Virus record (IMG/VR): IMGVR_UViG_2737471824_000004 | Span: 1-30,523 of that record | Strand: one strand, 5' to 3' | From: a virus | Taxonomy: Duplodnaviria; Heunggongvirae; Uroviricota; Caudoviricetes | DNA: 30,523 nt | Shown: positions 1-20,568 of the stretch, piece after piece | Layout: each line of letters begins with the position of its first letter | How positions within the stretch are numbered: the stretch's first letter is position 1 | Program-made: the position numbers and the translations under genes | The notes under the pieces: generated by a model | What the model saw: only the letters and a program-made list of their open reading frames with translations | What the model was told of the DNA's origin: nothing | Database searches by the model: none

Positions 1-1857
1 ACCGTTCACCTTAATTGAGTGATCTGCCGTCTCGCCAGTTTTATTATCGCTGGCGTGATGCTGATTGCCGCCAGGGTTCTCCTTGTGTGGATGTTCAGCG
101 CCTTCCATTTCCTCCGGATCATTTTCCTGAACTTCAACCTGATTCTCTTCATCGAATGTTTCCTGGTATGTTGCGTCGCCCATCACCGCGCCACAATCAG
201 GGCAGTTGCCGCCACCGCTCTGACCGCAGGCGGTGCAGACTTTTTCCGGTTCCTGTTGCGCTACTGGTTCGGATTGTTTCGTTTCTGGCTCGTTTTGTAA
301 CGCATTTGGGCTGTTTTGTTCCGCTTTTTGGTCGTTCCGTTCCGATTCATGCTGGTTCTGGTTCACAGAATCGCGAGTCTGGATCCCCTTGACCCATTTC
401 GGATCATTAGGGTCGCTAATCCCCTCAACAAATTCACCACGCGATACAGCAAGTAACTTATCGGCGTCAGGCTGGCTGATATTGGCTGCCTGCATAATTT
501 TGTTTACTTCGTCAGCGGTGACTTTTACTTGGTTAGCGGAACTCACCTGCGACTGAGCATCCAGCGACTGCGCGTTCTGGCCATGTTCAGTTGTATCCGG
601 TTCCATTGTTTCAGTTGTTGCCTGTTCACCTGCCATTGCGTCAGATGGTTGTGGTTTTTCTTCTTCTGTTTCACGCTCAGTAACCACCTCGCGGTTAATT
701 TCTTCCAGGATATCTTTTTCCGGCGTATGCCGGGCAGCTGTGAGAGTTTCCTTGCTGGGGTTCTCGTGATCAGTTTCCGTCAAATAGGCGTTGATATACC
801 CCTGAAGGCGTCCCGGGTAGTGATAAAATTCAGGGTGTGCGCTTCGGATAAGTGCAAAAATAGCGGCGCGGGAATAGTCCAGAATACCCGGGGTTGCACG
901 AAGTGCTGCGGACCATTCTTTGAACGGACTTTCTTTGTTCAGGACTACTTCTTTTGCGCGACGATAAACGCTGCCCGGAATTTCATAAATATTAAAATCC
1001 ATCGGAAGTGTGGCTGCTGCAATCTCCACATCCAGTGTGTCGAGGGTGTGTACTAAATTCGGATTGCGATCGGTTTTGTTCCCACCGCCAGCATTAGCAC
1101 CGGAAGCCGTGCGGGTGATGCGTGAAACACGATTTCCTTTCATCCACTCTTTTGTCAGCAGGCCGCGATCGGTGTAGTCAGCGTCCAGGTATGCTTCGAA
1201 AAAAGCAGTCATTAATCCCAGACTGGAATTAACGGGATTAGGGAAAACTTTGTCAGTGTCGCGAACCAGTTTGTGGAGGTCGCGAAGTTCCAGTGGGTCG
1301 AGCAGGCTGGTTTTGTGCGAAATAGCCAGGGCAGTAACTGCCGGTAGCTCTTCAGCCCGAGCGATATGTAATGCCTGAAGTTCATCTCTTGAAACGTGTG
1401 TTACTGGTTTTTCGCTGCCGTGTTGAGCAAGCCAACGGATAGCCACCTCCTGACCGGAAACTGGCAGGAGCATGCTCTCCTCAATCTCCGTCATGTCTTC
1501 GCCGTTAACATTGGTATTTTCGGTGCTGGCTGGTTTGTTCTGCACAGAGGGAGATGGCGCGGTGAATACCATTGTGATGCCATCTTCACCGCCTTTTTCA
1601 TAGCGGTTACAGAATTCGGTATCAAACACGCCTTCTGGTGGAAGGTCATTCACAACAGGCAAATGGACGCGAACAGGTTTTTTAAAGTCCTCTTCGTCGT
1701 AACCAGCATCATCCATTGCGACATTACCGCGGGAAACTGCAACAGATAATTTTTTTGCTGTAGTCCAGTAAAAACCGCCTTTAATACCGAGACGTTTTCT
1801 GACTTTGTCATTTTTGGCTTCGTAATGGAGTGCAATGTCTTGTTTGTCAGTGCTCAT
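1..1857 (-). CDS. recE: RecE-like exodeoxyribonuclease VIII, N-terminal/central part (619 codons in window; gene continues past the left edge)
   Basis: Hand translation of the minus strand from ATG at 1857 (MSTDKQDIALHYEAKNDKV...) to position 1 has no stop. RBS GAGGT about 8 nt upstream. Recalled similarity to Rac RecE (FPVVNDLPPEG, NTNVNGEDMTEIEE, WLAQHGSEKPVTHVSRD). Absent from the ORF track only because it is open at the window edge. Confidence 0.7.
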   Translation of the reverse strand, partial: MSTDKQDIALHYEAKNDKVRKRLGIKGGFYWTTAKKLSVAVSRGNVAMDDAGYDEEDFKKPVRVHLPVVNDLPPEGVFDTEFCNRYEKGGEDGITMVFTAPSPSVQNKPASTENTNVNGEDMTEIEESMLLPVSGQEVAIRWLAQHGSEKPVTHVSRDELQALHIARAEELPAVTALAISHKTSLLDPLELRDLHKLVRDTDKVFPNPVNSSLGLMTAFFEAYLDADYTDRGLLTKEWMKGNRVSRITRTASGANAGGGNKTDRNPNLVHTLDTLDVEIAAATLPMDFNIYEIPGSVYRRAKEVVLNKESPFKEWSAALRATPGILDYSRAAIFALIRSAHPEFYHYPGRLQGYINAYLTETDHENPSKETLTAARHTPEKDILEEINREVVTERETEEEKPQPSDAMAGEQATTETMEPDTTEHGQNAQSLDAQSQVSSANQVKVTADEVNKIMQAANISQPDADKLLAVSRGEFVEGISDPNDPKWVKGIQTRDSVNQNQHESERNDQKAEQNSPNALQNEPETKQSEPVAQQEPEKVCTACGQSGGGNCPDCGAVMGDATYQETFDEENQVEVQENDPEEMEGAEHPHKENPGGNQHHASDNKTGETADHSIKVNG

Positions 1858-2316: not shown

Positions 2317-2508
2317 TTAAATACTTGTCGTGACTTCTTTATTATCCTGACGAATAACTTTATCAACCTGATAACAGTTACCTGGAATTTTCTGTTCTTC
2401 TGCAGCAGCCATGCATTCTTTCATGGAGTTGTATATTCCTGCAACTATATCAACCGGTTCACCGGAAACAAGAAAAACAGTCATAACAAGCGCGAATACT
2501 GTATTCAT
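2317..2508 (-). CDS. hypothetical small protein with N-terminal hydrophobic segment (63 aa; sits where YdfD lies in Qin)
   Basis: ORF-track ORF; start ATG shares one base with the upstream gene stop (TGATG); N-terminus VFALVMTVFLV is hydrophobic. Confidence 0.5.
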   Translation of the reverse strand: MNTVFALVMTVFLVSGEPVDIVAGIYNSMKECMAAAEEQKIPGNCYQVDKVIRQDNKEVTTSI

Positions 2509-2693
2509 CAGTGTCTCCAGAAAATACCAAGTCTGAGAAGAGCCATTCTGGAAAGTATGGAATTATCATTGAGAAAATAAGGCTCATATTTCCTCATATT
2601 AATGGCATCTTCAGTAAACTCACGGTTACTGATTTGAACACCAATTTCAAAACAACCTTCAGATGTATTGATGTTTGGTAATAACGTTTCCAT
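2508..2693 (-). CDS. dicB: DicB-like cell-division inhibitor (61 aa)
   Basis: METLLPNINTSEGCFEIGVQISNREFTEDAIN closely resembles my recollection of the E. coli DicB N-terminus (MKTLLPNVNTSEGCFEIGV...); C-terminus diverged. True start is ATG at 2693 with RBS GAGGAAACGATA; the track M at 2711 is TTG. Confidence 0.6.
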   Translation of the reverse strand: METLLPNINTSEGCFEIGVQISNREFTEDAINMRKYEPYFLNDNSILSRMALLRLGIFWRH

Positions 2694-2707
2694 TATCGTT
2701 TCCTCGA

Positions 2708-3262
2708 TCAATGGATATTAAGTAACTGCTCCACGGTCATATTTTTAATTACGTCCCTGTTCACAAGCGTCCATCCCTGTTTCTCCAGATAAAAGCGGAA
2801 GGTTTCCAGGGTACAGACTATTGCTCCATCAGGAACGGTTTCAGTGAATTTGATGTTGCCGTGTTCGTCGAAGTGAACAACCAGAGTACGGCCATCGCCA
2901 GGAATCATCTTGTCAGCGGACGGGGTGTTATTCTGGCGCAGCTCTGCCTCCATGCGGTCAAACTCGGCAATGTAGGCTTCTTTGAACGCGGCGGCTTTTT
3001 TGCCGGTGAACCCCATCACCAAAAAAACGAAGCCGTTTTTGGTGATCTGGTACATTGGGAGCTTGCGTCCTGTTGAGTCGGTGTATTCGCTCGACACAAA
3101 ATTGTGCTCAGTGAATTTTGCTGAACAGTCCAGATTGCGAATTTTATCCAACACTCGTTCGTGGCGTTTACCAAAGAACTCGGCGATCGCAACAGACGTA
3201 GTGACAGCGCGACCATTTTCGATGGTTACATCAGGGTGATAAATGGTAGGGGTAGTAGCCAT
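2708..3262 (-). CDS. Rha-family phage regulatory/antirepressor protein with C-terminal domain shared with the ORF6N protein at 17746..18309
   Basis: Rha motif (VAIAEFFGKRHERVLDKIRNL...YQITKNGFVFLVMGFTGKKAAAFKEAYIAEF). Start chosen at ATG 3262 with GGAGG RBS 8 nt upstream; the in-frame upstream extension to 3670 crosses a terminator and a leader whose paralogue is non-coding. Confidence 0.7.
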   Translation of the reverse strand: MATTPTIYHPDVTIENGRAVTTSVAIAEFFGKRHERVLDKIRNLDCSAKFTEHNFVSSEYTDSTGRKLPMYQITKNGFVFLVMGFTGKKAAAFKEAYIAEFDRMEAELRQNNTPSADKMIPGDGRTLVVHFDEHGNIKFTETVPDGAIVCTLETFRFYLEKQGWTLVNRDVIKNMTVEQLLNIH

Positions 3263-3428
3263 GATGGCAGCCTCCGCGATGAATTTAATTAACTCACCAC
3301 CAGAGGTGCTAATCTCATGGGTGGTGAGACGCACAGGGTTAGCACTACCGGTCATCACGGAACCCGGCCAGCCTTGCGGCTGCCCTGCACGCCTCACCAT
3401 AATGCGAATGTGGCTGTGCTTAACGCAT

Positions 3429-3451
3429 AAAAAAACCGCCTGAGCGCGGTT
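3429..3451 (-). terminator. intrinsic terminator in the Rha leader (stem AACCGC/GCGGTT plus U7 on the minus strand)
   Basis: Hairpin at 3434..3451 followed on the minus strand by a 7-T run (plus-strand A-run 3429..3435). Confidence 0.5.
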
Positions 3452-3511
3452 ATGCGCCGTGATTGACTTCGGGGTGCTAATCCCGGCACCCGTTTTATGA
3501 GGTGCAGGTGA

Positions 3512-3540
3512 ACTATAATTCCACCCGTACTGGTTTTCAA
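3512..3540 (-). promoter_or_regulatory. sigma70-like promoter of the Rha cassette (-35 TTGAAA, 17-nt spacer, -10 TATAGT on the minus strand)
   Basis: Minus-strand hexamers at 3535..3540 and 3512..3517; homologous in position and sequence to the promoter at 17469..17497. Confidence 0.4.
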
Positions 3541-3739
3541 TAGCTACATTCAACATTTTCTCTTGCCTTTCATCACCGAAGTGAACTTTATTGATGCGGT
3601 GCCTGGTGCCTCCAGGTGACGTTAACCAGTTAACAATTAACGCCGGATACAGAGAATCCACCCATAACACTGTTTTTAGTTTTAACTGTTCCGCGTGCGC
3701 TTAGCCGCATTCACCGCATCACAAAATTCACTTTAAAAA

Positions 3740-3792
3740 GGGCGGCAGAGCAGTCACGGAGTAAAACTGATACCGCCAAACGTCACCAGAAA
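3740..3792 (-). ncRNA. dicF: DicF small RNA (53 nt), followed by a T-run at 3735..3739
   Basis: Minus strand reads TTTCTGGTGACGTTTGGCGGTATCAGTTTTACTCCGTGACTGCTCTGCCGCCC then TTTTT, matching my recollection of the 53-nt E. coli DicF including its GGCGG/CCGCC terminator stem. Confidence 0.8.
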
Positions 3793-4127
3793 ATTGATAA
3801 CAGAGGGCGTTGCAGCGGGGTTGTCACTTAAGCGTATGGTCAACCTGACAACCCGGTGTCCTCAACGGGGGAAGGAATAACCCCGCCATACTTACCGCCG
3901 CGCCATTTCGCGGATTGCCACAACCGGAAGCGCACGGTCGACGAAAATTTAACGACAGGCTATCTATGAACCAGCTACCTCGCCGTGCGCTTTCGCGTTA
4001 TGGTCTGACTTTTCAGGGAAATATCCTTTCAGTAAACTGTCAGTGCCGGATGCTCACCCGTGTCCGGCGCACGTACTCCACCTCACCCGTGGAGAACTCC
4101 TTAATCACCAACCCTCAGGAGGGTGAA

Positions 4128-4418
4128 ATGTCGACTGAAAATGATGAAATCATTAACTCCCTGATACGCCAAATTAATAATTTTGATAAAGCATTGCAGC
4201 ATGCTGCGGCGCGTAGTGATATAACTCTTTTAGCAATTTCATTTCTTGCATCTGTTATGGATAAAAATGAAGTCGTACGACAGAGTCTTGTTGATTATAT
4301 CGACTCGCTTCAACCCGGCACTTTCAATCATGAGAGCTTCAATCATGAGAGCTTCAATCATGAGAAAGAGCATGTTAAGTCTGTAATTAATTCTCTTATT
4401 TTGAATCAAAAGAATTAA
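4128..4418 (+). CDS. hypothetical protein (96 aa) with tandem SFNHE repeats; low-GC insert
   Basis: ATG 4128 with strong RBS AGGAGGG 5 nt upstream; low-GC coding sequence; opposite strand to the surrounding leftward operon; 3' end overlaps the convergent gene 4396..4716. Confidence 0.5.
   Translation: MSTENDEIINSLIRQINNFDKALQHAAARSDITLLAISFLASVMDKNEVVRQSLVDYIDSLQPGTFNHESFNHESFNHEKEHVKSVINSLILNQKN
4322..4366 (+). repeat. 15-bp tandem repeat (TTCAATCATGAGAGC x about 3) encoding SFNHE-SFNHE-SFNHE
   Basis: Direct reading of 4321..4370. Confidence 0.8.
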
Positions 4419-4716
4419 TGCTTTTTGTTGCAAAGTAATTTTCAAGGGGCTCTATTCGAATCCCTTTCTTTTTCATTAACAAGCCAAACCCCTTATCAAT
4501 GATGTCCATTAGATCCAGGAAGTATTTTTCATGTAAATCCTGGTTATCAGAGAGCTGCTTCTCTTCGTACAGACCGATAAAGGCACGACGCACGTTACCG
4601 GATATAGTATCGATGGTTTCTTTTTCTACGGTACTCAGGTCAAGAGTCGCCAGTTGGGAACGAACTATATTCGCTGCCATTTCCTGGAATTGCATTGGTA
4701 AATCTTTAAATTCCAT
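4396..4716 (-). CDS. hypothetical protein (106 aa); low-GC insert, convergent with 4128..4418
   Basis: ORF-track ORF; ATG 4716 with GAGG RBS; no family recognised. Confidence 0.55.
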   Translation of the reverse strand: MEFKDLPMQFQEMAANIVRSQLATLDLSTVEKETIDTISGNVRRAFIGLYEEKQLSDNQDLHEKYFLDLMDIIDKGFGLLMKKKGIRIEPLENYFATKSINSFDSK

Positions 4717-4738
4717 TATTAGCCTCGTTGGTTAGCTA

Positions 4739-4957
4739 TTAACGCGGGTATGTAATCATTCTGGCAATGCTTAATGCCGCTGCTTTTTCCAGCCTGGTGA
4801 TATCCTGCTCCAGAGCGGACAGATTTTCAGCCTGCTTAACCCTGGCTTCATTAGCCCATTTCAGATCCTGCGCTGCATTAATTTTCTGGCGCATCCACTC
4901 ATAAAGTTCATCATCGGTATAGTCTGGCGCGATGATGACGGGTTCTCGTTTCTGCAT
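4739..4957 (-). CDS. YdfC-like small protein (72 aa)
   Basis: ORF-track ORF with GAGGA RBS; size and position match YdfC of the Qin dicB operon as I recall it. Confidence 0.5.
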   Translation of the reverse strand: MQKREPVIIAPDYTDDELYEWMRQKINAAQDLKWANEARVKQAENLSALEQDITRLEKAAALSIARMITYPR

Positions 4958-4986
4958 ACTGATTCCTCGCGGTGCTGCTTCGCTTA

Positions 4987-5115
4987 TCAGCCGTTAGATT
5001 TTGCCGAGCTGGAAAGCGCCTGTTTAAACTCACTGAAGCTGAGAGCTTCTTCGCCTTCGGCAAGGCCTTCGAAGTATTCTTCGTAAGCCTTTTCCATGAT
5101 TGTGTCGAAATCCAT
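4987..5115 (-). CDS. YdfB/YdaG-like small protein (42 aa)
   Basis: Hand translation MDFDTIMEKAYEEYFEGLAEGEEALSFSEFKQALSSSAKSNG; RBS AGGTGAG; start 1 nt after the upstream stop; below the ORF-track length cutoff. Confidence 0.5.
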   Translation of the reverse strand: MDFDTIMEKAYEEYFEGLAEGEEALSFSEFKQALSSSAKSNG

Positions 5116-5116
5116 A

Positions 5117-5272
5117 TCACTCACCTGAGTTTCTTTCCAGCCAGCGACGGGCACCATTTTCGGTTTTAAACGTTTTGCTTTTGGTATACGTCATCGCGGT
5201 GAATGTGCCGTCCTGGTTGGGAAACACGCCGTACACCAGAGATTCGTTGTTGCCAAGATCGATAGTATCCAT
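5117..5272 (-). CDS. YdfA/YdaF-like small protein (51 aa)
   Basis: In-frame ATG at 5272 with GAGGT RBS (MDTIDLGNNESLVYGVFPNQDG...); first gene of the leftward early operon. Confidence 0.55.
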   Translation of the reverse strand: MDTIDLGNNESLVYGVFPNQDGTFTAMTYTKSKTFKTENGARRWLERNSGE

Positions 5273-5457
5273 GTTGACCTCATTTCCCCTTAACGCCGGG
5301 GTAGCGGAACAAGAACCTGCTGCATAGTTATTAAAGTTGAACCCTGCCGTCATGTTCTTACGCCTCGGGCTGGCTACTTAACCCCTGACCACTGCCTGGT
5401 AACTCGAAGTATTGCCCTGCGTTCTGTGGGGCGGGGTGGGGTGGTGAAATAAGGATG

Positions 5458-5494
5458 CACTTTTAAAGTTATTATGTCAACACTTATAAAGTTA
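5458..5494. promoter_or_regulatory. left operator-like region: two copies of a 14-bp motif (CACTTTTAAAGTTA 5458..5471, CACTTATAAAGTTA 5481..5494) flanking a minus-strand TTGACA
   Basis: Same motif in opposite orientation in the cI/cro intergenic region (TAACTTTTAAAGTG 6522..6535); a -35-like TTGACA (minus, 5475..5480) lies between the copies. Confidence 0.4.
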
Positions 5495-5507
5495 GTTTGT
5501 GTGCAAC

Positions 5508-5531
5508 AAAAACCGCCTCGAGATGAGACGG
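5508..5531 (-). terminator. intrinsic terminator after the repressor-TA operon (imperfect stem CCGTCTC/GAGGCGG plus T5 on minus strand)
   Basis: Plus-strand hairpin 5513..5531 preceded by an A-run 5508..5512. Confidence 0.45.
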
Positions 5532-5544
5532 CCCTGTGAAAGGG

Positions 5545-5832
5545 TTAGTTCTGCTTAGGGAATTGGCGTCTGGCGTGTACTACACTCACGATCTCAATGC
5601 TTAAAGTGGCTACACGGTAAAGAATTATATAGTTAGGGTGAGCTACAATCTCACGCAAGCCAGGTACTCTGTCGCTTGGTGGGTATAAATACGGGTGTTC
5701 GGATAACGGCAGCACACACCCCCTTAATCGCTGCCATAAGCGTTCTGCCGCATCTATGTCGAAACGAGCAATATAACTAGTTATATCATCCAGGTCGGTA
5801 TCTGCGCTTTCAAGCCATAACACGGGTAACAT
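5545..5832 (-). CDS. type II toxin, ParE/RelE superfamily (95 aa)
   Basis: C-terminal signature ...REIVAHPNYIILYRV...VVHARR typical of ParE/RelE toxins; start ATG 3 nt after the upstream antitoxin stop with RBS ACGGAG inside that gene. Confidence 0.7.
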   Translation of the reverse strand: MLPVLWLESADTDLDDITSYIARFDIDAAERLWQRLRGCVLPLSEHPYLYPPSDRVPGLREIVAHPNYIILYRVATLSIEIVSVVHARRQFPKQN

Positions 5833-5835
5833 TTA

Positions 5836-6024
5836 CTACTTACTCCGTTCCTTGCGCATTTTAGCAAAGCGTTCTGCCATTCTGCGCTCAACCTCGTCAT
5901 GGGGAATTGCTGGGCGCGGATTTGCAAGGCTCGCTGCTACTTTCGCACGCAGCCATTCGTTGTAACTGTTTTCTTGTTCAATGGTTTCGAACTCAGAAAC
6001 CATTGGTGAAAGGGCCGTATTCAT
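5836..6024 (-). CDS. type II antitoxin (ParD/StbD-like, 62 aa) paired with the toxin at 5545..5832
   Basis: ATG 6024 with RBS CGGAGG 6 nt upstream; the longer track frame from 6087 would overlap the repressor gene; small acidic protein directly upstream of a ParE-like toxin. Confidence 0.6.
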   Translation of the reverse strand: MNTALSPMVSEFETIEQENSYNEWLRAKVAASLANPRPAIPHDEVERRMAERFAKMRKERSK

Positions 6025-6053
6025 GGCACACCTCCGTCTGTGTATGGTGGTCA

Positions 6054-6461
6054 TTATGCTCGATGCCCTTTCCGGGCAGCGAGCCATCTTTCAATTGTGC
6101 GCTCCATTAACTCTTTTTTGTCTTTCATCTCCTGAAGCATTTGTCCCTGTTCTTCCTCTGGGAATGCTCCAAATGTCTGAAGTAGCTCTCTTTGCTTCGG
6201 ACCTATTTTCATTGTGTCAGGTACCACAATCTGTTCGTCCTCACTTGGTGGCAACATAAACCAATATGGAGGGAATCCTGTTACTTCAGAAAGTTTATCA
6301 AGATTAGCCATTGATGGGCTTGTGATGCCATGAACCCACTTTTGGACCGATTGTTGGGCAACACCTATTCTGCGGGCTAGTTCTGCTTGCTTAAGCCCTG
6401 TTTTTTCCAGCACCAGTTTTATCCGGTACGTGGTTATTTCAAGAGTGGTCATTCGCTTCAT
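6054..6461 (-). CDS. prophage repressor, DicA/RacR-like (135 aa, N-terminal XRE HTH, no S24 peptidase domain)
   Basis: HTH motif LKQAELARRIGVAQQSVQKW; size and C-terminal pattern resemble DicA as recalled; divergent from the Cro-like gene; leaderless start at the predicted pRM. Confidence 0.75.
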   Translation of the reverse strand: MKRMTTLEITTYRIKLVLEKTGLKQAELARRIGVAQQSVQKWVHGITSPSMANLDKLSEVTGFPPYWFMLPPSEDEQIVVPDTMKIGPKQRELLQTFGAFPEEEQGQMLQEMKDKKELMERTIERWLAARKGHRA

Positions 6462-6568
6462 GCATTCATTTTACACAAAAAAAGTGTAGCTAGCATAATC
6501 AGCTTGAAAGTGTTGATAATGTAACTTTTAAAGTGTATAAGTGATGTCGATTGATTGGAGTTAACGAT
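6462..6568. promoter_or_regulatory. divergent immunity promoter/operator region (pR-like rightward, pRM-like leftward)
   Basis: Rightward TTGATA (6513..6518), 17-nt spacer, TATAAG (6536..6541); leftward -10 TAAAAT (minus, 6468..6473) placing the start at the ATG 6461; three AAAGTGT copies at 6481, 6507, 6530 (spacing 26 and 23 bp); palindrome TACAC-A7-GTGTA at 6472..6488. Confidence 0.55.
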
Positions 6569-6847
6569 ATGCATAAATGTTTAAAAAATAAAATTCGCCA
6601 AATAGGGTTATCCCAAGCGGGTATTGCTCGCTTGATTGGGTTGCCACAGCAGGTTGTATGTCGATGGGTTAATGGGCAACAGGTCCCTGCATCAAGGGTT
6701 TTACAACTGTGTGAGATTATGGCGTGGACTGTCACCCCCCACGAGCTCCGACCAGATATTTACCCTAACCCAACCGATGGCCTGCCTTGTGGACGTAAGA
6801 GTACAGCGAATGAATTACTGGCGGTGAACAATGAAAATCACTCCTGA
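6569..6847 (+). CDS. Cro/YdaS-like HTH regulator (92 aa)
   Basis: ATG 6569 with GGAG RBS 8 nt upstream; HTH LSQAGIARLIGLPQQVVCRW and HELRPD motif typical of YdaS/Cro-like proteins. Confidence 0.7.
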   Translation: MHKCLKNKIRQIGLSQAGIARLIGLPQQVVCRWVNGQQVPASRVLQLCEIMAWTVTPHELRPDIYPNPTDGLPCGRKSTANELLAVNNENHS

Positions 6848-7352: not shown

Positions 7353-8310
7353 ACGCCCGCTGGTTATAAACACACAGCTGGCGATGAAGATTGGTTTAAA
7401 CGAAGCAATTGTGTTGCAGCAACTGCATTACTGGTTGAGGGATACCAGTTCTGGCATGGAATGTGATGGCGTTCGCTGGATTTACAACACAACGGAACAA
7501 TGGCTGGAACAGTTTCCGTTCTGGTCAGAGTCAACGTTAAAGCGTGCGTTTGCAAGTCTGAAAACGCTGGGGCTTTTGCGTAGCGAAAAGCTCAATAAAT
7601 CGAAGCGTGACATGACTAATTTTTACACAATTAACTACGATAGCGCGCTTTTAGATGATGGCAAAGTGAACGAATCCATCGGGTCAAAATGCGCCACTCC
7701 ATCAGGTCAAAATGACACGATGGAAGAGGTCAGGATGAAACGTTCCATTGGTTCAAAACGACCCAATGTCATCAGGTCAAAATGGCACGATGATCCTACA
7801 GAGAATACAACAGAGAATACAACAGAGAATACAACAGAGAATAAAAAACTCTCTTGTCCGGACGCTTCGCAACCGGACGAGTTGACGGCTGAACAGGCGT
7901 TTTTAACCCGCCATCCTGATGCTGTTGTGTTCAGCGTGAAAAAACGCCAGTGGGGAACCCGGGAGGATTTGACATGTGCGCAGTGGATCTGGGGGCGGGT
8001 TGTAAACCTGTACGAACAGGCTGCCAGTGACGATGGTGAGATCACGCGACCGAAAGAGCCCAACTGGACGGCGTGGGCCAATGACGTGCGCACAATGCGG
8101 ATGCTGGATGGAAGAAGTCACAGACAAATTTGCGAAATGTTCAGCCGGGCACAACGGGATCCGTTCTGGATAAAAAACATCAAGAGCCCGGAAAAACTCC
8201 GTGAGAAATGGGATGAACTGGTTATTCGACTGTGGCGTGGTCCCGCGCAGCGTTGCGTGAATCATATTTCTGAACCGGATACCGAAATTCCGCCGGGTTT
8301 CAGGGGGTAG
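7333..8310 (+). CDS. phage replication initiation/replisome organiser protein (O/YdaU-like, about 325 aa)
   Basis: ATG 7333 (track M at 7291 is GTG); N-terminal motif NEAIVLQQLHYWL typical of replisome-organiser N domains; iterons inside the gene; followed by a DnaC-like loader. Confidence 0.6.
   Translation: MSLLFAERPLVINTQLAMKIGLNEAIVLQQLHYWLRDTSSGMECDGVRWIYNTTEQWLEQFPFWSESTLKRAFASLKTLGLLRSEKLNKSKRDMTNFYTINYDSALLDDGKVNESIGSKCATPSGQNDTMEEVRMKRSIGSKRPNVIRSKWHDDPTENTTENTTENTTENKKLSCPDASQPDELTAEQAFLTRHPDAVVFSVKKRQWGTREDLTCAQWIWGRVVNLYEQAASDDGEITRPKEPNWTAWANDVRTMRMLDGRSHRQICEMFSRAQRDPFWIKNIKSPEKLREKWDELVIRLWRGPAQRCVNHISEPDTEIPPGFRG
7678..7784. repeat. putative origin iterons: four copies of ATCRGGTCAAAATG-like motif (7678, 7701, 7747, 7771)
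   Basis: Direct repeats at 23, 46 and 24-bp spacing inside the O-like gene, analogous to ori-lambda lying within gene O. Confidence 0.5.
7798..7845 (+). repeat. 12-bp tandem repeat ACAGAGAATACA x 4 (encodes TENTTENTTENTTEN)
   Basis: Direct reading; immediately downstream of the iterons. Confidence 0.8.
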
Positions 8311-8316
8311 CGCATC

Positions 8317-9057
8317 ATGAAAAACATTACGTCAGGTGGTGTTCTGGCAAGAGTCAGCAGATTTGTGCCGCAGGATGCAATCCCTCCGTACCGTACGGTG
8401 GCGGAGTGGCGGGAATGGCAGCTTGCTGAAGGGCGTAAGCGAAGCGAGGAAGTTAATCGTCTGAATCATCAGACGCGGGTTGAAAAAATCATTAACCGCT
8501 CCGGTATCCAGCCGCTTCACCGGAAGTGTACGTTCGGTAACTACCGGGTGCAGAACGATGGTCAGCGCCATGCCCTGAGTCAGGCGAAATCCATTGCGGC
8601 AGAGCTGGAAGGCGGCTGTACGAATTTTGTTTTCAGTGGCAGGCCTGGCACAGGAAAAAACCACCTGGCGGCGGCTATTGGCAACCACCTTCTGGCGAAA
8701 GGTCGCAGTGTGATTGTGATAACAGTGGCGGATGTGATGCTGGCGTTACATGGCAGCTACGACAACAAAAACTCGGGCGAAAAATTTTTGCAGGGATTGT
8801 GTGGCGTTGACCTGCTGGTACTGGATGAAATTGGCATGCAACGGGATACGCGTAATGAGCAGGTCACGCTGAATCAGATTGTTGACCGCAGAACGGCATC
8901 GTTACTCAGTGTGGGGATGCTGACAAATCTTAACCATGCAGCGATGAATACACTTCTCGGCGAGCGGGTGATGGACCGCATGTCCATGAACGGTGGTCGC
9001 TGGGTGACGTTTAACTGGGAGAGCTGGCGTCCGAACGTCAGCCAGCACAGGAACTGA
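8317..9057 (+). CDS. DnaC-like helicase loader / IstB-like ATPase (YdaV-like, 246 aa)
   Basis: Walker A GRPGTGKNHLAAAIG and Walker B DLLVLDEIG; RBS AGGGGG. Confidence 0.8.
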   Translation: MKNITSGGVLARVSRFVPQDAIPPYRTVAEWREWQLAEGRKRSEEVNRLNHQTRVEKIINRSGIQPLHRKCTFGNYRVQNDGQRHALSQAKSIAAELEGGCTNFVFSGRPGTGKNHLAAAIGNHLLAKGRSVIVITVADVMLALHGSYDNKNSGEKFLQGLCGVDLLVLDEIGMQRDTRNEQVTLNQIVDRRTASLLSVGMLTNLNHAAMNTLLGERVMDRMSMNGGRWVTFNWESWRPNVSQHRN

Positions 9058-13010: not shown

Positions 13011-13186
13011 TGCAGCGGGTGCTTGAGGCTATCTGTCTCAGGCATGAACACCAAAAGGCAGATAGAGAAAAGCCCCAGTTAACATTACGCGTCCGGCAAG
13101 ACGCTTAACATTAATCTGAGGCTCAATCTATGAACGGCAAATCTAGGTTAGCCTCTTACGTGCCGAAAGGCAAGGAGAAGCAGGCT

Positions 13187-13342
13187 ATGAAGCAGCAAAA
13201 GGCGATGTTAATCGCCCTGATCGTCATCTGTTTAACCGTCATAGTGACGGCACTGGTAACGAGGAAAGACCTCTGCGAGGTACGAATCCGAACCGGCCAG
13301 ACGGAGGTCGCTGTCTTCACAGCTTACGAACCTGAGGAGTAA
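13187..13342 (+). CDS. hokD: Hok/Gef-family type I toxin (51 aa; HokD/RelF-like)
   Basis: MKQQKAMLIALIVICLTVIVTALVTRKDLCEVRIRTGQTEVAVFTAYEPEE: transmembrane helix plus LCEVR...EVAVF signature; AAGGAG RBS; in-frame upstream extension from 13130 is a mok-like leader frame. Confidence 0.75.
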   Translation: MKQQKAMLIALIVICLTVIVTALVTRKDLCEVRIRTGQTEVAVFTAYEPEE

Positions 13343-13508: not shown

Positions 13509-14123
13509 ATGCAGAATTTATCTCAACAGTTGTTAGAAGCATATGACAAGGAGTGCCGCAAAGAGCTTTCGATCGCGTTAGCACAGGCTTATCTTCATTC
13601 GCATATGAAGGCAAAAGAGTTTGGTTCTTTTTGGGCTCAAGCACAGTCATATTTGCGCTGGTTTTATGCCGATGCATTGCTTGAGAATGCGGCTAAGCGT
13701 GTGGGGCTGGATTTTGAAGTCGGTAGCAATGCTGCTAAAAATTGTAAACACATTGCGATTCACTCGAACAACTGGAAAATGACGGCACATCATTTATCGG
13801 GTAATGCGCCACTTCCTAAGCAGGCATTGTATAGAGCTGTTTACGCTAATCAAAATTATGAATTGAATTTTGGGGATGAAAATGCCGACTCCCTGGATGG
13901 GAGAGCGTCTGGTGGACATGTTTATATGTTACATGATGGCAGTAATCAGCACTTGTCCAAACTGAATTTAACTGTTCCTTCTTCGGATAATTACGGGATT
14001 CTTTATACTGAGTCTTTACCAATTATGACGATGGTAGAAGTTGAAGCAGAAAATGTGGATTCTGAGATTGAAGATAAAATCAAGATTCTTACCGAACAAA
14101 TAATTAAATCACAGCAATCATGA
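13509..14123 (+). CDS. hypothetical protein (204 aa), first gene of a two-gene low-GC module
   Basis: ATG 13509 with AAGGA RBS; stop overlaps the downstream start (ATGA); two TGGTTGACA boxes upstream (13445..13452, 13477..13484). Confidence 0.55.
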   Translation: MQNLSQQLLEAYDKECRKELSIALAQAYLHSHMKAKEFGSFWAQAQSYLRWFYADALLENAAKRVGLDFEVGSNAAKNCKHIAIHSNNWKMTAHHLSGNAPLPKQALYRAVYANQNYELNFGDENADSLDGRASGGHVYMLHDGSNQHLSKLNLTVPSSDNYGILYTESLPIMTMVEVEAENVDSEIEDKIKILTEQIIKSQQS

Positions 14124-15265
14124 GCATGAATATCGCACAAACACCATTTACTGATAAATCGTTTAATCCTCGTCGCCTTGAGGAGGCAAGAGAGGCAAAA
14201 GGGTTGACGATGGCTGAACTTGCCAGAGTGCTCAATATTTCAAGACAAGCTATTTCGTCATTTGAGAAGGGGTTGAAGTCTCCCTCTGCTGATACACTTT
14301 CTGCAATAGCCAAGGTGTTAGGATTTCCAGAACGATTTTTCTTAGCCTCCAGTGCTTCTCCATCTCTGGAGGGGGCGATTCATTTTAGAAGTCGTTCAAC
14401 TGCGACCAAAAAGGCTCGAGTTACAGGGAAAACACGTGGGCGTTGGGCGGCATTAATATTGGATGAATGTCTAAAATATGCTCAATTACCAGATGTGGTT
14501 CTGCCTGAATTCGATATTATTGATTTTGAGGTTCTGTCTCTATCTGATATTGAGGATATGTCCACCCAATTAAGGCGTTTTTGGGGGTTAGGTGATGGTC
14601 CAATACTCAATTTAACTAGACTTGTTGAAAATAAAGGAATCGTGGTTTCTCATTTACCTTCTGGTGAGAAAGTTGATGCCTTTTCGTTCTGGCATAATGG
14701 GCGGCCTTTAATTATGTTAGATAGCTCGAAGACGGCTGTTCGCATGCGATTTAGTCTTGCTCATGAACTTGGCCATTTAATTATGCATAGGGCAGTGGAG
14801 GATGACTACCTGAATGATAAAGAATTATTCGACCTGGTGGAGTTGCAGGCCGATTATTTTGCCTCCAGCTTTTTAATGCCAGCCACGACTTTCGGGCGTG
14901 AATTTTATAGTCCAAATTTATCAGCGTTAGAACGATTAAAACTACGTTGGATTACATCTATCGGTAGTATTGCCATGAGGAGTCATAGCCTTAAGTTAAT
15001 CAGCGATAATCAGAAAAGCTATATATTTAAGCAATTAGCGCCATTCCATCGTAGGGAGCCGTTAGATGATGCAATCCCAAAAGAAGAGCCTGAGTTACTT
15101 AATAAGTTACTTTTACTTCTTGATAAGCATTCAATCATAAAGGTAACTGAGTTAACTGATATCTTTGCTCTTCCCTTAAATGAGTTATCTGCAATTACAC
15201 GATTTAAAGAATCAGATATGATTCATTCTGACAATGTTATTTCATTTACCATAAAACAAAAATAA
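14120..15265 (+). CDS. XRE-family HTH fused to ImmA/IrrE-type zinc metallopeptidase (COG2856-like), 381 aa with C-terminal extension
   Basis: HTH LTMAELARVLNISRQAISSFEKG; HEXXH motif LAHELGHLIMH. Confidence 0.75.
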   Translation: MSMNIAQTPFTDKSFNPRRLEEAREAKGLTMAELARVLNISRQAISSFEKGLKSPSADTLSAIAKVLGFPERFFLASSASPSLEGAIHFRSRSTATKKARVTGKTRGRWAALILDECLKYAQLPDVVLPEFDIIDFEVLSLSDIEDMSTQLRRFWGLGDGPILNLTRLVENKGIVVSHLPSGEKVDAFSFWHNGRPLIMLDSSKTAVRMRFSLAHELGHLIMHRAVEDDYLNDKELFDLVELQADYFASSFLMPATTFGREFYSPNLSALERLKLRWITSIGSIAMRSHSLKLISDNQKSYIFKQLAPFHRREPLDDAIPKEEPELLNKLLLLLDKHSIIKVTELTDIFALPLNELSAITRFKESDMIHSDNVISFTIKQK

Positions 15266-16710: not shown

Positions 16711-17088
16711 ATGACTGAACGCATAGAATTTGTTTTGCCTTACCCGCCGACGGTGAATACTTACTGGCGACGTCGCGGCAGCACATATTTTGTATCAAAA
16801 GCCGGTGAGCGTTATCGCCGAGATGTGGCGCTTATTGTTCGCCATCAGCAACTGAAATTAAACCTCTCCGGAAGGCTGGCGATAAAGATTATTGCAGAGC
16901 CACCGGATAAGCGCCGTCGTGACCTGGACAATATCCTGAAAGCACCGCTGGATGCACTAACGCATGCGGGACTGCTTATCGATGACGAGCAGTTTGATGA
17001 AATCAATATTGTGCGCGGACTGCCTGTTCCTGGTGGGCGGTTGGGCGTGAAGATTTACGAAATTACAGGTGATAACGATGGTGCGTGA
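16711..17088 (+). CDS. rusA: RusA Holliday-junction resolvase (125 aa)
   Basis: [15 protein letters not shown]...[27 protein letters not shown] matches RusA hallmarks. Confidence 0.8.
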
Positions 17089-17464
17089 TATTCAGCAGGT
17101 TATGGAGCGGTGGGGAGCATGGGCTGCGAACAATCACGAAGATGTGTCATGGGCGTCAATCGCTGCTGGTTTTAAAGGATTAATCCCGCCGAAAGTGAAA
17201 TCACGCCCTCAGTGTTCTGATGATGATGCAATGATAATTTGTGGCTGTATGGCCCGGTTGAACAAGAAAAATCAGGATTTGCACGATTTGTTGGTGGATT
17301 ATTACGTAGGTGGAATGACTTTTATGGGGTTGGCACGAAAGCATGGGTGTTCGGATACCTGTATTGGCAAGCGCCTGCAGAAAGCGGAAGGGGTTATTGA
17401 TGGCATGTTGATGATGCTTGATATCCGACTGGAGATGGACAGATACGTAGAACGAATCATGTAG
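17078..17464 (+). CDS. late antiterminator Q (Q21/QuuD-like, 128 aa)
   Basis: [23 protein letters not shown]...[10 protein letters not shown]... resembles DLP12 QuuD as recalled; ATG 17078 with AGGTGA RBS; overlaps the rusA end. Confidence 0.75.
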
Positions 17465-17468
17465 GAGC

Positions 17469-17497
17469 TTGACCAGACACATTGTCCGGGGCTATAT
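17469..17497 (+). promoter_or_regulatory. pR'-like promoter directly after Q (-35 TTGACC, 17-nt spacer, -10 CTATAT/TATATT)
   Basis: Hexamers at 17469..17474 and 17492..17499; homologous to the promoter at 3512..3540. Confidence 0.4.
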
Positions 17498-17560
17498 TCC
17501 TCACGCGTCAGCAAAATCTGGCGTCGGGATTAGGAACCCCGGATAGAGACCGCGACAGAT

Positions 17561-17583
17561 ACACGCCGCGAGCGTGTTTTTTA
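17561..17583 (+). terminator. tR'-like intrinsic terminator (ACACGC-CGCGA-GCGTGT plus T6)
   Basis: Direct reading; about 70 nt downstream of the pR'-like promoter. Confidence 0.5.
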
Positions 17584-17745
17584 TTGTCGTATGCACGCGC
17601 ACATCTGAATTATGGTGGGGCGTATGGGGGAGCTGAAAGGCTCGCCGGTTGGTTTCCCGGTAGTTCCTAACCCTGTACGTCTCACCACCCGATGATTAGG
17701 AACCTGACGGTGGTGATAGTTTAGAAACCACTAGAGGGCGTCATT

Positions 17746-18309
17746 ATGACAACTCAAATCTCTGTTGAAACTCTCTCCCCGATCACCCATAACCAGATTC
17801 CTGTTATTACCACTGAACTTTTGGCGCAGCTTTATGGCACCGAAATTCTGAATATCCAGGTTAACTTCACCAGAAACAAAGAGCGTTTTGTCGCAGGAAA
17901 GCACTTTTTTAAAGCAGCGGGTGAGGAATTAAAAAAATTGCGACTTACTTTAAGTAAGTCACAAAATCCCATCTCTCCCAAAACCCGCTTCCTCATCCTA
18001 TGGACAGAACGCGGAGCTGCCCGCCACGCAAAAATGCTGGAAACAGATCAGGCGTGGGAAGTATTCGAAAAACTGGAAGACTGTTATTTCAGCCAGAAAC
18101 AGCCACCAGCAACACAAAACTCCCCCACCGAAAATGATGGATGCGCATTACTGATCCACTTCGATAAACACGGTCAGGTCGACTTCACGGAAAAAGTACC
18201 CGCCGATGCGATGGTATGCACTCTGGAACGGTTCAAATTTTATCTGGAACAACGCGGCTGGATCGTTGCCAGTAAAGAGCAACTGGTGGAACGACTGATG
18301 CGACTTTAA
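17746..18309 (+). CDS. ORF6N/KilA-N-type antirepressor-like protein with the same C-terminal domain as the Rha protein (187 aa)
   Basis: N-terminal ITTELLAQLYGTE...NKERFVAGKHFF...LWTERGAARHAKML resembles the ORF6N domain; C-terminus LLIHFDKHGQVDFTEKVPADAMVCTLERFKFYLEQRGW parallels the Rha C-terminus; RBS GAGGG. Confidence 0.65.
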   Translation: MTTQISVETLSPITHNQIPVITTELLAQLYGTEILNIQVNFTRNKERFVAGKHFFKAAGEELKKLRLTLSKSQNPISPKTRFLILWTERGAARHAKMLETDQAWEVFEKLEDCYFSQKQPPATQNSPTENDGCALLIHFDKHGQVDFTEKVPADAMVCTLERFKFYLEQRGWIVASKEQLVERLMRL

Positions 18310-20221: not shown

Positions 20222-20513
20222 ACAACGAATCCTTCTGATCTGCTTTTGCGGGGCTTTTTTGTATCCGCTCCATGCCCGGCGTATAAGCGGAGGTTGGTCA
20301 GTTTTCTAAAAATTGAAATACCTCACAATTCAGCCAGTTAATGGTTGTTTGTCTGGCGAAGAGTTTGTAAATAAAAAAACGCATGGTGAATCCCCCTAAG
20401 CGGCGGGGCGAATCAGCAGTCAGTTCTGGGATAATCGCGGGTTTGTATGCTGATGCCGGACTCACCGGGAGGCACCCGGCACCATGCATCATGGTCATCC
20501 CCTTGTATGATAC

Positions 20514-20568
20514 CCCTCTCCGGAGGGGTATTTTTTGGATAAAAAAGCCCGCGCTGGGAGGCACGGGC
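20514..20568. terminator. back-to-back terminator-like hairpins (plus: CCCCTC-TCCG-GAGGGG plus T6 at 20514..20537; minus: hairpin 20547..20568 with T6 on the minus strand)
   Basis: Direct reading. Confidence 0.4.

Follow-up and report, generated by a model that had tools for sequence, protein, structure and literature searches.

Two C4/IsrK-type RNA leaders with different pairing codes precede antirepressor-type genes in a Qin-like prophage

We analyzed a window of 30,523 nucleotides (positions 1 to 30,523 of the IMG/VR virus record IMGVR_UViG_2737471824_000004), in which a Qin-like prophage carries two related leaders upstream of genes that, judging from their domain matches, probably belong to antirepressor-type families. 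Copy A, on the minus strand, precedes a gene for a Rha-family regulator or antirepressor (2708..3262, minus strand, 184 residues; Pfam Phage_pRha, E = 5e-31) within a cassette located between dicF and dicB, the latter starting 14 nt 3' of rha, and the prophage also encodes a DicA-like repressor (6054..6461); with regard to a possible dicB duplication around this cassette, a direct repeat was looked for and not found. Copy B, on the plus strand, follows the Q gene (17069..17464) and precedes an ORF6N-domain antirepressor-like gene (17746..18309, plus strand; Pfam ORF6N), the product of which is 56% identical to AnrP/STM2616 of the Salmonella prophage Gifsy-1 (E = 3e-66). The two leaders can be aligned with each other from about positions 3505 and 17505, respectively, up to the ATG, with a mean column identity of 75% over an aligned stretch that includes some flank. 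The 10-mer GATTAGCACC and the 11-mer GATTAGGAACC each occur twice in the window, solely at the leader sites. An earlier note, prepared from the letters of this DNA, had pointed out both leaders, and its coordinates and sequence statements are correct for both copies.

Searches with the curated covariance models of Rfam identified, in both copies and above the curated thresholds, an isrK RNA (RF01394) followed by a C4 antisense RNA (RF01695). The isrK model scored 68.7 bits for copy A and 66.9 bits for copy B (gathering score 50), and the C4 model 81.0 and 65.7 bits (gathering score 45). The third related family, c4-a1b1 (RF03163), scored 25.4 bits on copy A, under its gathering score of 46.7, and gave no gathering-level match on copy B; Gifsy-1 itself lies barely over this score with 48.1 bits. 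No riboswitch family of Rfam matched within the window. A P1-like phage, Gifsy-1, and P4 show the same succession of isrK and C4, and by alignment copy A resembles the immI leader of phage P1 and copy B the isrK locus of Gifsy-1. Both leaders are ordinary members of an already known control module, the C4/IsrK antisense-RNA module of antirepressor genes. The earlier note had not recognized a described element here, a view refuted by the three Rfam families and by the literature on P1/P7, P4, N15, and Gifsy-1. What had been noticed in the sequence is thus a rediscovery of the logic by which the C4 antisense-immunity RNA finds its a and b targets. Taking the homology and the arrangement of the parts together, each leader is very probably a C4/IsrK-type RNA immunity module governing the antirepressor gene downstream.

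Copy A begins with a promoter-like site, TTGAAA-17-TATAGT (3512..3540, minus strand), matching the consensus at 10 of 12 positions, and similarity to other phages sets in just 3' of it, at about 3505. There the IsrK-like or a1b1 leader RNA starts (3429..3505, minus strand), which is predicted to end in an intrinsic terminator composed of a hairpin and a T-run (3451..3429); its fold has an energy of −25.7 kcal/mol (z −2.7). It includes the element GGGATTAGCACCCC (3484..3471), within which TTAGCAC (3474..3480) lies in the loop of IsrK hairpin 2 and constitutes the b1 site, as indicated by the covariation of b1 with b'. The a1 site, ATCACGG (3457..3463), is located between hairpin 2 and the terminator and is complementary to the loop of hairpin 2 of the C4 RNA. 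The C4-type antisense RNA (3317..3404, minus strand) is distinguished by co-varying helices and by a stable fold (−47.6 kcal/mol, z −4.8). It carries a' (CCGTGATGA, 3352..3360) in the loop of its hairpin 2 and b' (GTGCTAA, 3339..3345) in a single-stranded stretch.

Downstream of the C4 RNA of copy A, b2 (TTAGCAC, 3306..3312) appears 5 nt past the C4 3' end. It is followed by GGTGGTGA (3294..3301), an element nearly invariant among 81 leaders, whose possible partners are either TCACCACC (3327..3320) in the 3' strand of C4 or the region of a2 and the Shine-Dalgarno (SD) sequence. The a2 site TCATCGCGG (3282..3274) overlaps the SD sequence GGAGG (3275..3271), so that the two occupy 3271..3282 on the minus strand; a2 and a' can form nine base pairs, one of them G.U. 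A hairpin sequestering the SD sequence is predicted for copy A (−28.5 kcal/mol, z −3.5). The three elements singled out in the earlier note are the classical b1, b', and b2 sites, and a second co-varying triplet, a1, a', and a2, had been overlooked. The note had also regarded a stem-loop of GTGCTAA and TTAGCAC as the main fold, but the stretch CCCTGTGCGTCTCACCACCC (3338..3319) between these two arms, taken for a conserved loop, turned out to be the 3' strand of the 17-bp helix that closes the C4 RNA.

All these parts recur in copy B, on the plus strand. Its promoter-like site, TTGACC-18-TATATT (17469..17498; 10 of 12 consensus matches), starts 5 nt past the Q gene. The IsrK-like RNA (17505..17582), which also aligns with Gifsy-1 isrK, contains b1 (TTAGGAAC, 17530..17537), a1 (GAGACCG, 17546..17552), and a predicted terminator (17561..17582), and its fold is no better than that of shuffled sequence (z −0.35). 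The C4-type RNA (17608..17692; −42.3 kcal/mol, z −3.6) presents a' (TGGTTTC, 17650..17656) and b' (GTTCCTAA, 17663..17670). The target region (17696..17738) comprises b2 (TTAGGAAC, 17696..17703), GGTGGTGA (17709..17716), a2 (GAAACCA, 17724..17730), and the SD sequence GAGGG (17734..17738). The minimum-energy fold of C4 reproduces the Rfam consensus in both copies, namely a long closing helix around a pair of hairpins and an unpaired 3' segment. Measured from the C4 3' end, the offset is +5 or +6 for b2 and +31 to +34 for a2 in the two copies, and in both a2 abuts or overlaps the SD sequence.

To follow the pairing elements beyond these two loci, we compared 93 distinct homologous leaders, which contain 27 different b' heptamers and 60 variants of a'. 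In an exact-match test, a complement of b' occurs on both sides at 81 of the 93 own loci, whereas 8 of 7984 non-self pairs show this; the downstream complement considered separately is found at 87 of 93 own loci and in 12 of 7984 non-self pairs. The same test for a' gave matches at 43 of the 93 loci compared with 18 of 8420 non-self pairs. These comparisons confirm that, once homologues are included, the elements change together far beyond chance, and the concerted change of three elements noticed earlier is borne out. We judged b':b2 and a':a2 without an alignment, as MAFFT loses the register of b2 and a2, whose offsets vary by 1–3 nt. Two other measures were tried and set aside. RNAduplex energies were better by 5–13 kcal/mol for cognate pairs of C4 and target, but we do not rely on them because the values are governed largely by stem sequence held in common and by long interior loops; the longest run of Watson-Crick or G.U pairs showed a high self/non-self background owing to conserved flanks within the probes, and exact matches and pair counts give a cleaner picture.

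Covariation of the structure itself was among the checks proposed in the earlier note, and it is present among the wider homologues. The whole structure has a covariation score of 0.376 compared with 0.148 in shuffles, and none of 500 shuffles reaches the observed value; sliding the partner by one to three columns lowers the score to 0.036 to 0.079. The long-range helix between b1 and b' is 96% paired among 81 leaders with changes on both sides at 6 of 7 pairs. The a1:a' helix scores 0.419 compared with 0.186 in shuffles. Within the C4 RNA, the 17-bp closing helix reaches 99.7% pairing and shows compensatory changes at 8 of its 17 pairs, and hairpin 1 shows them at all 5 of its pairs. G.U is among the pair types, which indicates a constraint at the RNA level. 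Together, the a and b sequences constitute a specificity code: copy A uses TTAGCAC together with CCGTGATGA, whereas copy B uses TTAGGAAC together with TGGTTTC. Since the codes differ, the two copies are expected to be regulated independently.

By analogy with the characterized relatives, a sigma-70-type promoter would give rise to a transcript whose first 77 nt, the IsrK-like or a1b1 part, could stop at the intrinsic terminator, and the majority of transcripts presumably end there as a short RNA. Read-through transcripts would contain the C4 RNA, which in P1/P7, according to secondary citations, is cut out by RNase P. C4 is predicted to present two antisense segments, a' in the hairpin-2 loop and b' in the single-stranded stretch, which would pair with a2 and b2 directly downstream on the mRNA. 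Such pairing would block translation of Rha (copy A) or of the AnrP-like ORF6N protein (copy B), given that a2 abuts or overlaps the SD sequence, and premature transcription end may follow, as the analogy with P1 and P4 suggests. The same segments could also pair in cis with a1 and b1 upstream, yielding an inactive long-range fold, and the short terminated RNA may pair with C4 in trans, compete with it, and lift repression as IsrK does in Gifsy-1. We consider it likely that a processed C4 RNA represses antirepressor translation as an antisense RNA and that the short upstream RNA acts as its competitor or activator. The published read-outs differ between the systems: P1 combines a translational block with polarity, P4 and N15 use termination, and Gifsy-1 employs trans-activation by the short RNA together with coupling through an upstream ORF. 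The sequence by itself does not single out one of them.

The closest counterpart of copy A is c4/immI of P1 and P7, where c4 acts at the ribosome binding site to stop ant expression and determines the heteroimmunity of the two phages. Secondary citations count C4 among the substrates of RNase P, and a stable RNA of about 77 nt that represses in trans with immunity specificity is known for P1/P7. The parts follow the same order: the promoter and a1b1 come first, C4 carries a' and b', and the ribosome binding site of the first gene downstream is where b2 and a2 lie. As in P1/P7 heteroimmunity, specificity resides in compensatory a and b changes. In the P1-like phage JL22, the leader aligns with copy A and even the start of the downstream frame is similar (MATTPT.. 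versus VATIPT..). However, P1 is a plasmid prophage, unlike the lambdoid host element here, and its leader precedes the icd-ant pair, whereas copy A would control Rha directly. The a and b sequences of P1/P7 also differ from those of copy A, and no P1 C1 operator sequence was seen in the bases inspected 5' of copy A.

Copy B, on the other hand, shares with the IsrK/orf45/AnrP locus of Gifsy-1 the gene order Q, isrK, C4, and antirepressor with the module located directly after Q, the promoter type, the IsrK hairpins and terminator, the C4-like RNA (STnc1160 in Salmonella), and the AnrP-like protein of 187 residues. The sequences of the code are different, b TTGGCGT and a ATCACCG in Gifsy-1 as opposed to b TTAGGAAC and a GAAACCA in copy B. 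It is possible, and we hold this tentatively, that the logic of Gifsy-1 dominates here as well: the cis fold of b1a1 with b'a' would be the inactive state, the short RNA would open it in trans, an upstream ORF whose start is a conserved AUG within the 5' arm of C4 would bring ribosomes into the antirepressor gene, and a separate C4 repressor RNA would be dispensable. Besides the shared gene order, copy B can be aligned from end to end with the isrK leader of Gifsy-1, the minimum-energy fold of each full leader includes the long-range b1:b' helix, and the Rfam consensus shows the AUG as conserved. There is experimental backing in Gifsy-1 itself, where the compensatory mutants G28A/C162U and G31A/C159U prove the alternative structures (PMC4825925); numbered by us on the Gifsy-1 sequence, these positions fall in b1 and b'. 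Mutations of b1 in cis raise expression in Gifsy-1 (PMC4825925), which counts against a pure decoy role of the short RNA.

However, the coupling ORF of 45 codons with its 4-nt AUGA stop/start overlap is limited to Gifsy-1-like loci (L030 and L063 in our survey), and this overlap is absent from both copies. The counterpart of orf45 in copy B has 27 codons and stops 50 nt 5' of the ATG without overlapping the antirepressor start, the one in copy A has no stop and is fused in frame to Rha, and elsewhere the ORF comprises 8 to 59 codons or is fused. Moreover, the authors of the Gifsy-1 study detected STnc1160, an RNA of about 80 nt that arises by processing, and remarked on the analogy with P4 CI, and b2 and a2 co-vary as tightly as b1 and a1, as predicted for an interaction of C4 with its target.

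In P4 and N15, three mutually complementary sites likewise lie upstream of, inside, and downstream of the regulatory RNA (seqA, seqB, and seqC of the P4 CI RNA; the CA RNA of N15). According to secondary citations, the CI RNA is processed from the leader under its control and pairs with seqA and seqC. That C4 acts here on the nascent leader at a1b1 and a2b2 chiefly by raising termination, either at the IsrK terminator or further downstream by Rho, with a secondary block of translation, appears doubtful. In both copies a1 directly precedes the terminator hairpin, a position that would fit such a role, as would the premature termination that the same citations ascribe to the CI RNA acting through seqA and seqC, and P4 shares the pair of isrK-like and C4 elements, a likeness that rests on Rfam matches. 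In P4, premature termination governs a replication operon, whereas here an antirepressor gene follows whose SD sequence is abutted or overlapped by a2, an arrangement that suits a translational block. The authors of the Gifsy-1 study also considered such a mechanism, and constitutive STnc1160 left the IsrK-mediated growth arrest unweakened.

Apart from antisense repression by C4, translation through the leader deserves attention. In P1-type leaders with an 84-nt C4, the frame of the C4 AUG contains 0.15 stops per 43 codons, compared with 1.6 and 2.1 in the other two frames, and it runs in frame into the antirepressor gene; it is depleted of stops further upstream, too. It seems unlikely, though worth stating, that P1-type leaders, copy A included, have a dual function, with ribosomes that start at the C4 AUG (3400..3398 in copy A), a start demonstrated for Gifsy-1 orf45, passing over b2 and a2 and through the hairpin that sequesters the SD sequence before entering Rha. 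If so, antirepressor translation would be mutually exclusive with the folding or processing of C4, and an N-terminally extended 'Ash-Rha' isoform could arise.

A very unlikely reading is that the leader is conserved as protein, the 'Ash' domain (PF10554) being the N-terminus of a longer Rha. The Rha frame of copy A is indeed open for 146 codons 5' of the ATG, a conceptual peptide of 136 residues (3670..3263) scores 59.4 bits on PF10554 (Phage_ASH; gathering score 26), RefSeq annotates an Ash+Rha protein of 284 residues at a homologous locus, and 38 of 40 P1-type leaders are without stops in this frame. We tested for protein-level selection and did not find it: there is no clear excess of variation at third codon positions, and pN/pS is 0.89 in the Rha frame compared with 0.83 and 1.05 in the other two. 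Two Rfam RNA families with co-varying helices span the region, the ORF starts 5' of the leader's own promoter, and other C4 classes, copy B among them, are rich in stops in the Rha frame. In P4, where the immunity factor is the CI RNA, PF10554 falls on an ORF annotated as 'cI gene product' that overlaps the C4 match, i.e., the CI RNA. The Pfam 'Ash' domain is a conceptual translation of the IsrK-C4 RNA leader, and the more modest version of our proposal is that it be retired as a protein domain. Gene callers and Pfam lengthen Rha proteins by about 100 residues with their 'Ash' calls, and the literature has taken 'Ash' for a domain of unknown function.

The suggestion of the earlier note that the leader is a self-contained cis switch or attenuator operating through the GTGCTAA/TTAGCAC stem, perhaps responsive to Q or a ligand, is highly improbable: mutually exclusive pairings are present and copy B lies directly 3' of Q, but the supposed loop is one strand of the nearly fully paired helix that closes C4, the pairing elements vary more than any other part of the leader while keeping their complementarity, which indicates an RNA-RNA recognition code and not a ligand pocket, copy A is far from Q, and homologous modules are found in P1, P4, and numerous settings that lack Q. 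Of this suggestion, the structured leader with mutually exclusive, co-varying pairings stands; a simple cis attenuator does not, because in characterized relatives the excised antisense RNA acts both on its own transcript and in trans. The leaders do not fit the pattern of a ligand-sensing riboswitch or classical attenuator, a conserved sensing core with pairing alternatives confined to cis, and nothing was found that ties the element to Q antitermination.

The genes 3' of the leader at 78 loci belong to families of antirepressor type, namely Rha (27), ORF6N (25), P4-epsilon-like Derepression (14), P22_AR_N (4), and Bro-N (4). Within one Qin-like prophage, two modules of different specificity would guard two antirepressor-type genes, an arrangement that bears on the possible control of induction and of the toxic dicB gene. 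The catalogue of at least 27 b' specificities may also offer orthogonal RNA regulators. The promoter-like site 3' of Q was also considered as a candidate for the Q-dependent late promoter, but a full STnc100 element with a terminator is located just 5' of the lysis genes of this prophage, the commoner place for such a leader.

Both leaders belong to described RNA families. An Rfam scan of the window at curated thresholds identified an isrK RNA (RF01394), a short leader RNA ending at a terminator, followed by a C4 antisense RNA (RF01695), in the minus-strand leader upstream of the Rha gene (copy A; isrK 3505..3429, 68.7 bits; C4 3404..3317, 81.0 bits) and in the plus-strand leader upstream of the ORF6N gene (copy B; isrK 17505..17582, 66.9 bits; C4 17608..17692, 65.7 bits). 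P1-like phage JL22, Salmonella prophage Gifsy-1 and satellite phage P4 likewise have isrK followed by C4. RF03163 ("a1, b1 targets of C4 antisense RNA") scored 48.1 bits on Gifsy-1 and 25.4 bits on copy A, under its gathering score of 46.7. Both c4 and c4-a1b1 were listed previously (Weinberg et al., 2010), the seqA/CI analogy has been discussed for IsrK (Hershko-Shalev et al., 2016), and an "IsrK-C4 immunity system" has been described, with structurally similar ones in P1, P7, N15 and Salmonella lambdoid prophages (Barquist et al., 2013). The literature already covers the element, the logic of its three sites and its occurrence in lambdoid prophages. The earlier note had proposed an undescribed RNA switch with mutually exclusive pairings; the structured RNA control element stands, whereas its novelty does not, as both copies match isrK and C4, making the note a correct re-discovery and not a new element.

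Copy A is followed by a Rha-family gene and resides in a Qin-like early-left operon, where its cassette (promoter, isrK, C4 and rha) lies between DicF (3791..3740, minus), in its upstream flank, and dicB (2693..2508, minus), the whole spanning 2508..3791. The ATG of dicB (2693) is 14 nt past the rha stop, so rha and the gene of the cell-division inhibitor DicB may share a transcript, placing DicB under C4 control. At the homologous E. coli STEC388 locus, a partial dicB pseudogene is annotated directly upstream of the cassette. Copy B starts 5 nt after the Q antiterminator gene (17069..17464, plus) and precedes, on the same strand, an ORF6N protein of 187 aa with 56% identity to Gifsy-1 AnrP. 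We found no link of the element to Q.

Reading of both regions confirmed the sequence elements and coordinates reported earlier for the two leaders, which share the order of their parts and are alignable from ~3505 and ~17505, respectively, up to the ATG, with a mean column identity of 75%. On the minus strand, copy A comprises a promoter-like site TTGAAA-17-TATAGT (3540..3512; 10 of 12 consensus matches), an upstream element GGGATTAGCACCCC (3484..3471), a terminator made of a GC-rich hairpin and a T-run (3451..3429), b' GTGCTAA (3345..3339), CCCTGTGCGTCTCACCACCC (3338..3319), b2 TTAGCAC (3312..3306) and the Rha ATG (3262). Copy B, on the plus strand, has a promoter-like site TTGACC-18-TATATT (17469..17498), a terminator (17561..17582) and b1, b' and b2 reading TTAGGAAC, GTTCCTAA and TTAGGAAC. 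Within the 30.5-kb window, GATTAGCACC and GATTAGGAACC have exactly two occurrences each, both at the leader sites.

The stem of GTGCTAA and TTAGCAC around a conserved loop, as previously drawn, does not agree with the C4 fold, in which the "loop" CCCTGTGCGTCTCACCACCC provides the 3' strand of a closing helix of 17 bp and GTGCTAA is a single-stranded stretch separating C4 hairpin 2 from that helix. The fold thus places the three co-varying elements as the classical sites b1 (loop of IsrK hairpin 2), b' (inside C4) and b2 (5-6 nt past C4). Half of the sites had been missed, since a1, a' and a2 form a second triplet. Site a1 lies between IsrK hairpin 2 and the terminator (copy A, ATCACGG, 3463..3457, minus; copy B, GAGACCG, 17546..17552, plus), a' forms the loop of C4 hairpin 2 (copy A, CCGTGATGA, 3360..3352, minus; copy B, TGGTTTC, 17650..17656, plus), and a2 adjoins the Shine-Dalgarno (SD) sequence (copy A, TCATCGCGG, 3282..3274, minus; copy B, GAAACCA, 17724..17730, plus). 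The a2 site of copy A forms 9 bp with a', one being G.U, and overlaps the SD GGAGG (3275..3271), whereas in copy B 3 nt separate the a2 end from the SD GAGGG.

The C4 folds have z-scores of -4.8 (copy A) and -3.6 (copy B), and a hairpin sequestering the SD of copy A is predicted at -28.5 kcal/mol (z -3.5). The minimum-energy structures of both full leaders contain the presumed inactive cis fold, with a1b1 paired with the C4 segments. Downstream of b2, GGTGGTGA (3294..3301, minus; 17709..17716, plus) is nearly invariant in an alignment of 81 leaders and complementary to the C4 3' strand TCACCACC (3320..3327, minus; 17681..17688, plus). In the unprocessed transcript, GGTGGTGA could replace the C4 closing helix, placing b2 in the loop of a hairpin. 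The alternative partners of GGTGGTGA in copy A are a2 and the SD.

The coordinated change of the three elements noted in the two copies extends to homologues. Among 120 viral-contig loci fetched with a pattern that relied on the invariant C4 helix ends alone, 93 are distinct genuine C4 leaders, in which b' occurs as 27 different heptamers and a' as 60 nonamers. Without any alignment, 81 of the 93 own loci had the exact complement of b' upstream as well as downstream, as opposed to 8 of 7984 mismatched pairs, in which b' was taken from a locus whose b' differs; for 7-mer complements of a' the counts were 43/93 and 18/8420. In a MAFFT alignment of 81 leaders, the long-range b1:b' helix was 96% paired, with six of its seven positions changed on both sides (e.g., C-G 38, A-U 26, U-A 8 and G-C 3 at one position). 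The covariation score of the whole structure was 0.376 versus 0.148 in shuffled alignments, none of 500 reaching 0.376, and dropped to 0.036-0.079 in controls with the 3' partner slid by 1-3 columns; the a1:a' helix scored 0.419 versus 0.186. Because G.U is among the accepted pair types, the constraint points to RNA rather than DNA.

The downstream gene starts 47-59 nt past C4. In 78 loci these genes encode Rha (27), ORF6N (25), P4-epsilon-like Derepression (14), P22_AR_N (4) and Bro-N (4) proteins. Since the genes that follow it are of antirepressor type, the leader acts like a portable cassette controlling them. Several viral contigs have more than one C4 module, either two or three, and two of these contigs have three (L061/L062 and L064/L065/L066). 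Loci L064 and L066 have an identical b', ACGCCAA, and unlike a' loops; the specificity of a and b may therefore be combinatorial.

The computation provides the anatomy of both modules, their folds and a specificity code in the a and b sequences. In the proposed working, processed C4 would pair with b2 and a2 and repress translation of Rha (copy A) or the AnrP-like protein (copy B). The upstream a1b1 segment would pair with the same C4 segments, giving the inactive fold in cis, while in trans the short terminated RNA would compete for C4. As b (TTAGCAC in copy A versus TTAGGAAC in copy B) and a both differ, the two modules should not cross-regulate. Translational block, terminator control and trans-activation are the candidate read-outs, each with precedents among relatives. 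In P1 and P7, c4 RNA pairs with ant mRNA around the ribosome binding site, blocking expression and setting heteroimmunity, and the C4 antisense RNAs of both phages are reported among the non-tRNA substrates of RNase P. In P4, CI RNA is reportedly processed from the leader, and pairing with seqA (upstream) and seqC (downstream) leads to premature termination. In Gifsy-1, the IsrK terminator stops most transcripts, those that read through are translationally inactive mRNAs, and anrP is activated over 100-fold by short IsrK provided in trans (PMC4825925). Two compensatory mutant pairs there, G28A/C162U and G31A/C159U, establish that an intramolecular helix forms (PMC4825925); by our numbering these positions map to Gifsy-1 b1 (UUGGCGU) and b' (ACGCCAA), whose helix is the one co-varying in our alignment.

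In a four-way alignment, copy A resembles the P1 immI leader as far as the first codons of the downstream frame, and copy B the Gifsy-1 isrK leader. Unlike P1 with its icd-ant pair, copy A would control Rha directly, and no P1 C1 operator sequence was seen among the bases read upstream of it. Gifsy-1 orf45 has 45 codons, begins at a conserved AUG within the 5' arm of C4 and ends with a stop that overlaps the start of anrP. This ORF is not conserved here. In copy B, the equivalent (17612..17695, plus) has 27 codons and ends at a TGA directly before b2, 50 nt ahead of the ATG. The translational coupling of Gifsy-1 can therefore not operate identically. In copy A, the corresponding frame meets no stop codon and continues in phase into Rha.

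In copy A, the 146 codons ahead of the ATG in the Rha frame contain no stop. Translated conceptually from the earliest start codon of this frame, a peptide of 136 aa (3670..3263, minus) matches PF10554, the "Ash protein family", with 59.4 bits (gathering 26), over exactly the isrK-C4-target stretch. RefSeq has a 284-aa Ash+Rha protein for the homologous STEC388 gene (408..1259 of that locus). In P4, PF10554 falls on the annotated "cI gene product (AA 1-137)" ORF (8168..8584 of the P4 locus), overlapping the C4 (CI RNA) match, and the real epsilon protein belongs to another family, PF25738. The "Ash domain" has served as a marker for P4 epsilon and was reported on Stx-phage Rha proteins as a domain of unknown function. 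We found no protein-level selection in the variation by codon position (0.74/0.77/0.85) or in pN/pS (0.89 in the Rha frame versus 0.83 and 1.05 in the other two). PF10554 was probably defined as a protein family from translations of an RNA gene. Stops were counted in 3263..3700 (minus) and 40 P1-type leaders from the 120 loci. In this class, with an 84-nt C4, 43 codons of the Rha frame are stop-free in 38 of 40 distinct leaders, with 0.15 stops per 43 codons from the C4 AUG versus 1.6 and 2.1 in the other frames, and 0.62 versus 2.4 and 3.6 further upstream. Other C4 classes, including copy B, have no stop depletion in that frame.

The region 2600..6600 has no identical match in a collection of 5,426 complete genomes of E. 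coli, and the best of the places covering most of it show 86-93% identity; the prophage is a mosaic that this collection lacks in that form. The window also carries a ParE-toxin/PaaA2-antitoxin pair (5545..6087, minus), a sok antitoxin RNA (112 bits) next to a hok-like ORF (13017..13192, plus) and an HTH and M78 peptidase (ImmA/IrrE-like) protein (14120..15265, plus). Upstream of the lysis genes, the STnc100 sRNA is matched in full, with a terminator (113.9 bits; 20352..20540, plus). DicF and the copy A isrK flank a partial STnc100-like stretch containing CACCTGGAGGCACCAGGCACC (3587..3728, minus), whose 38.9 bits fall short of the gathering score of 47.
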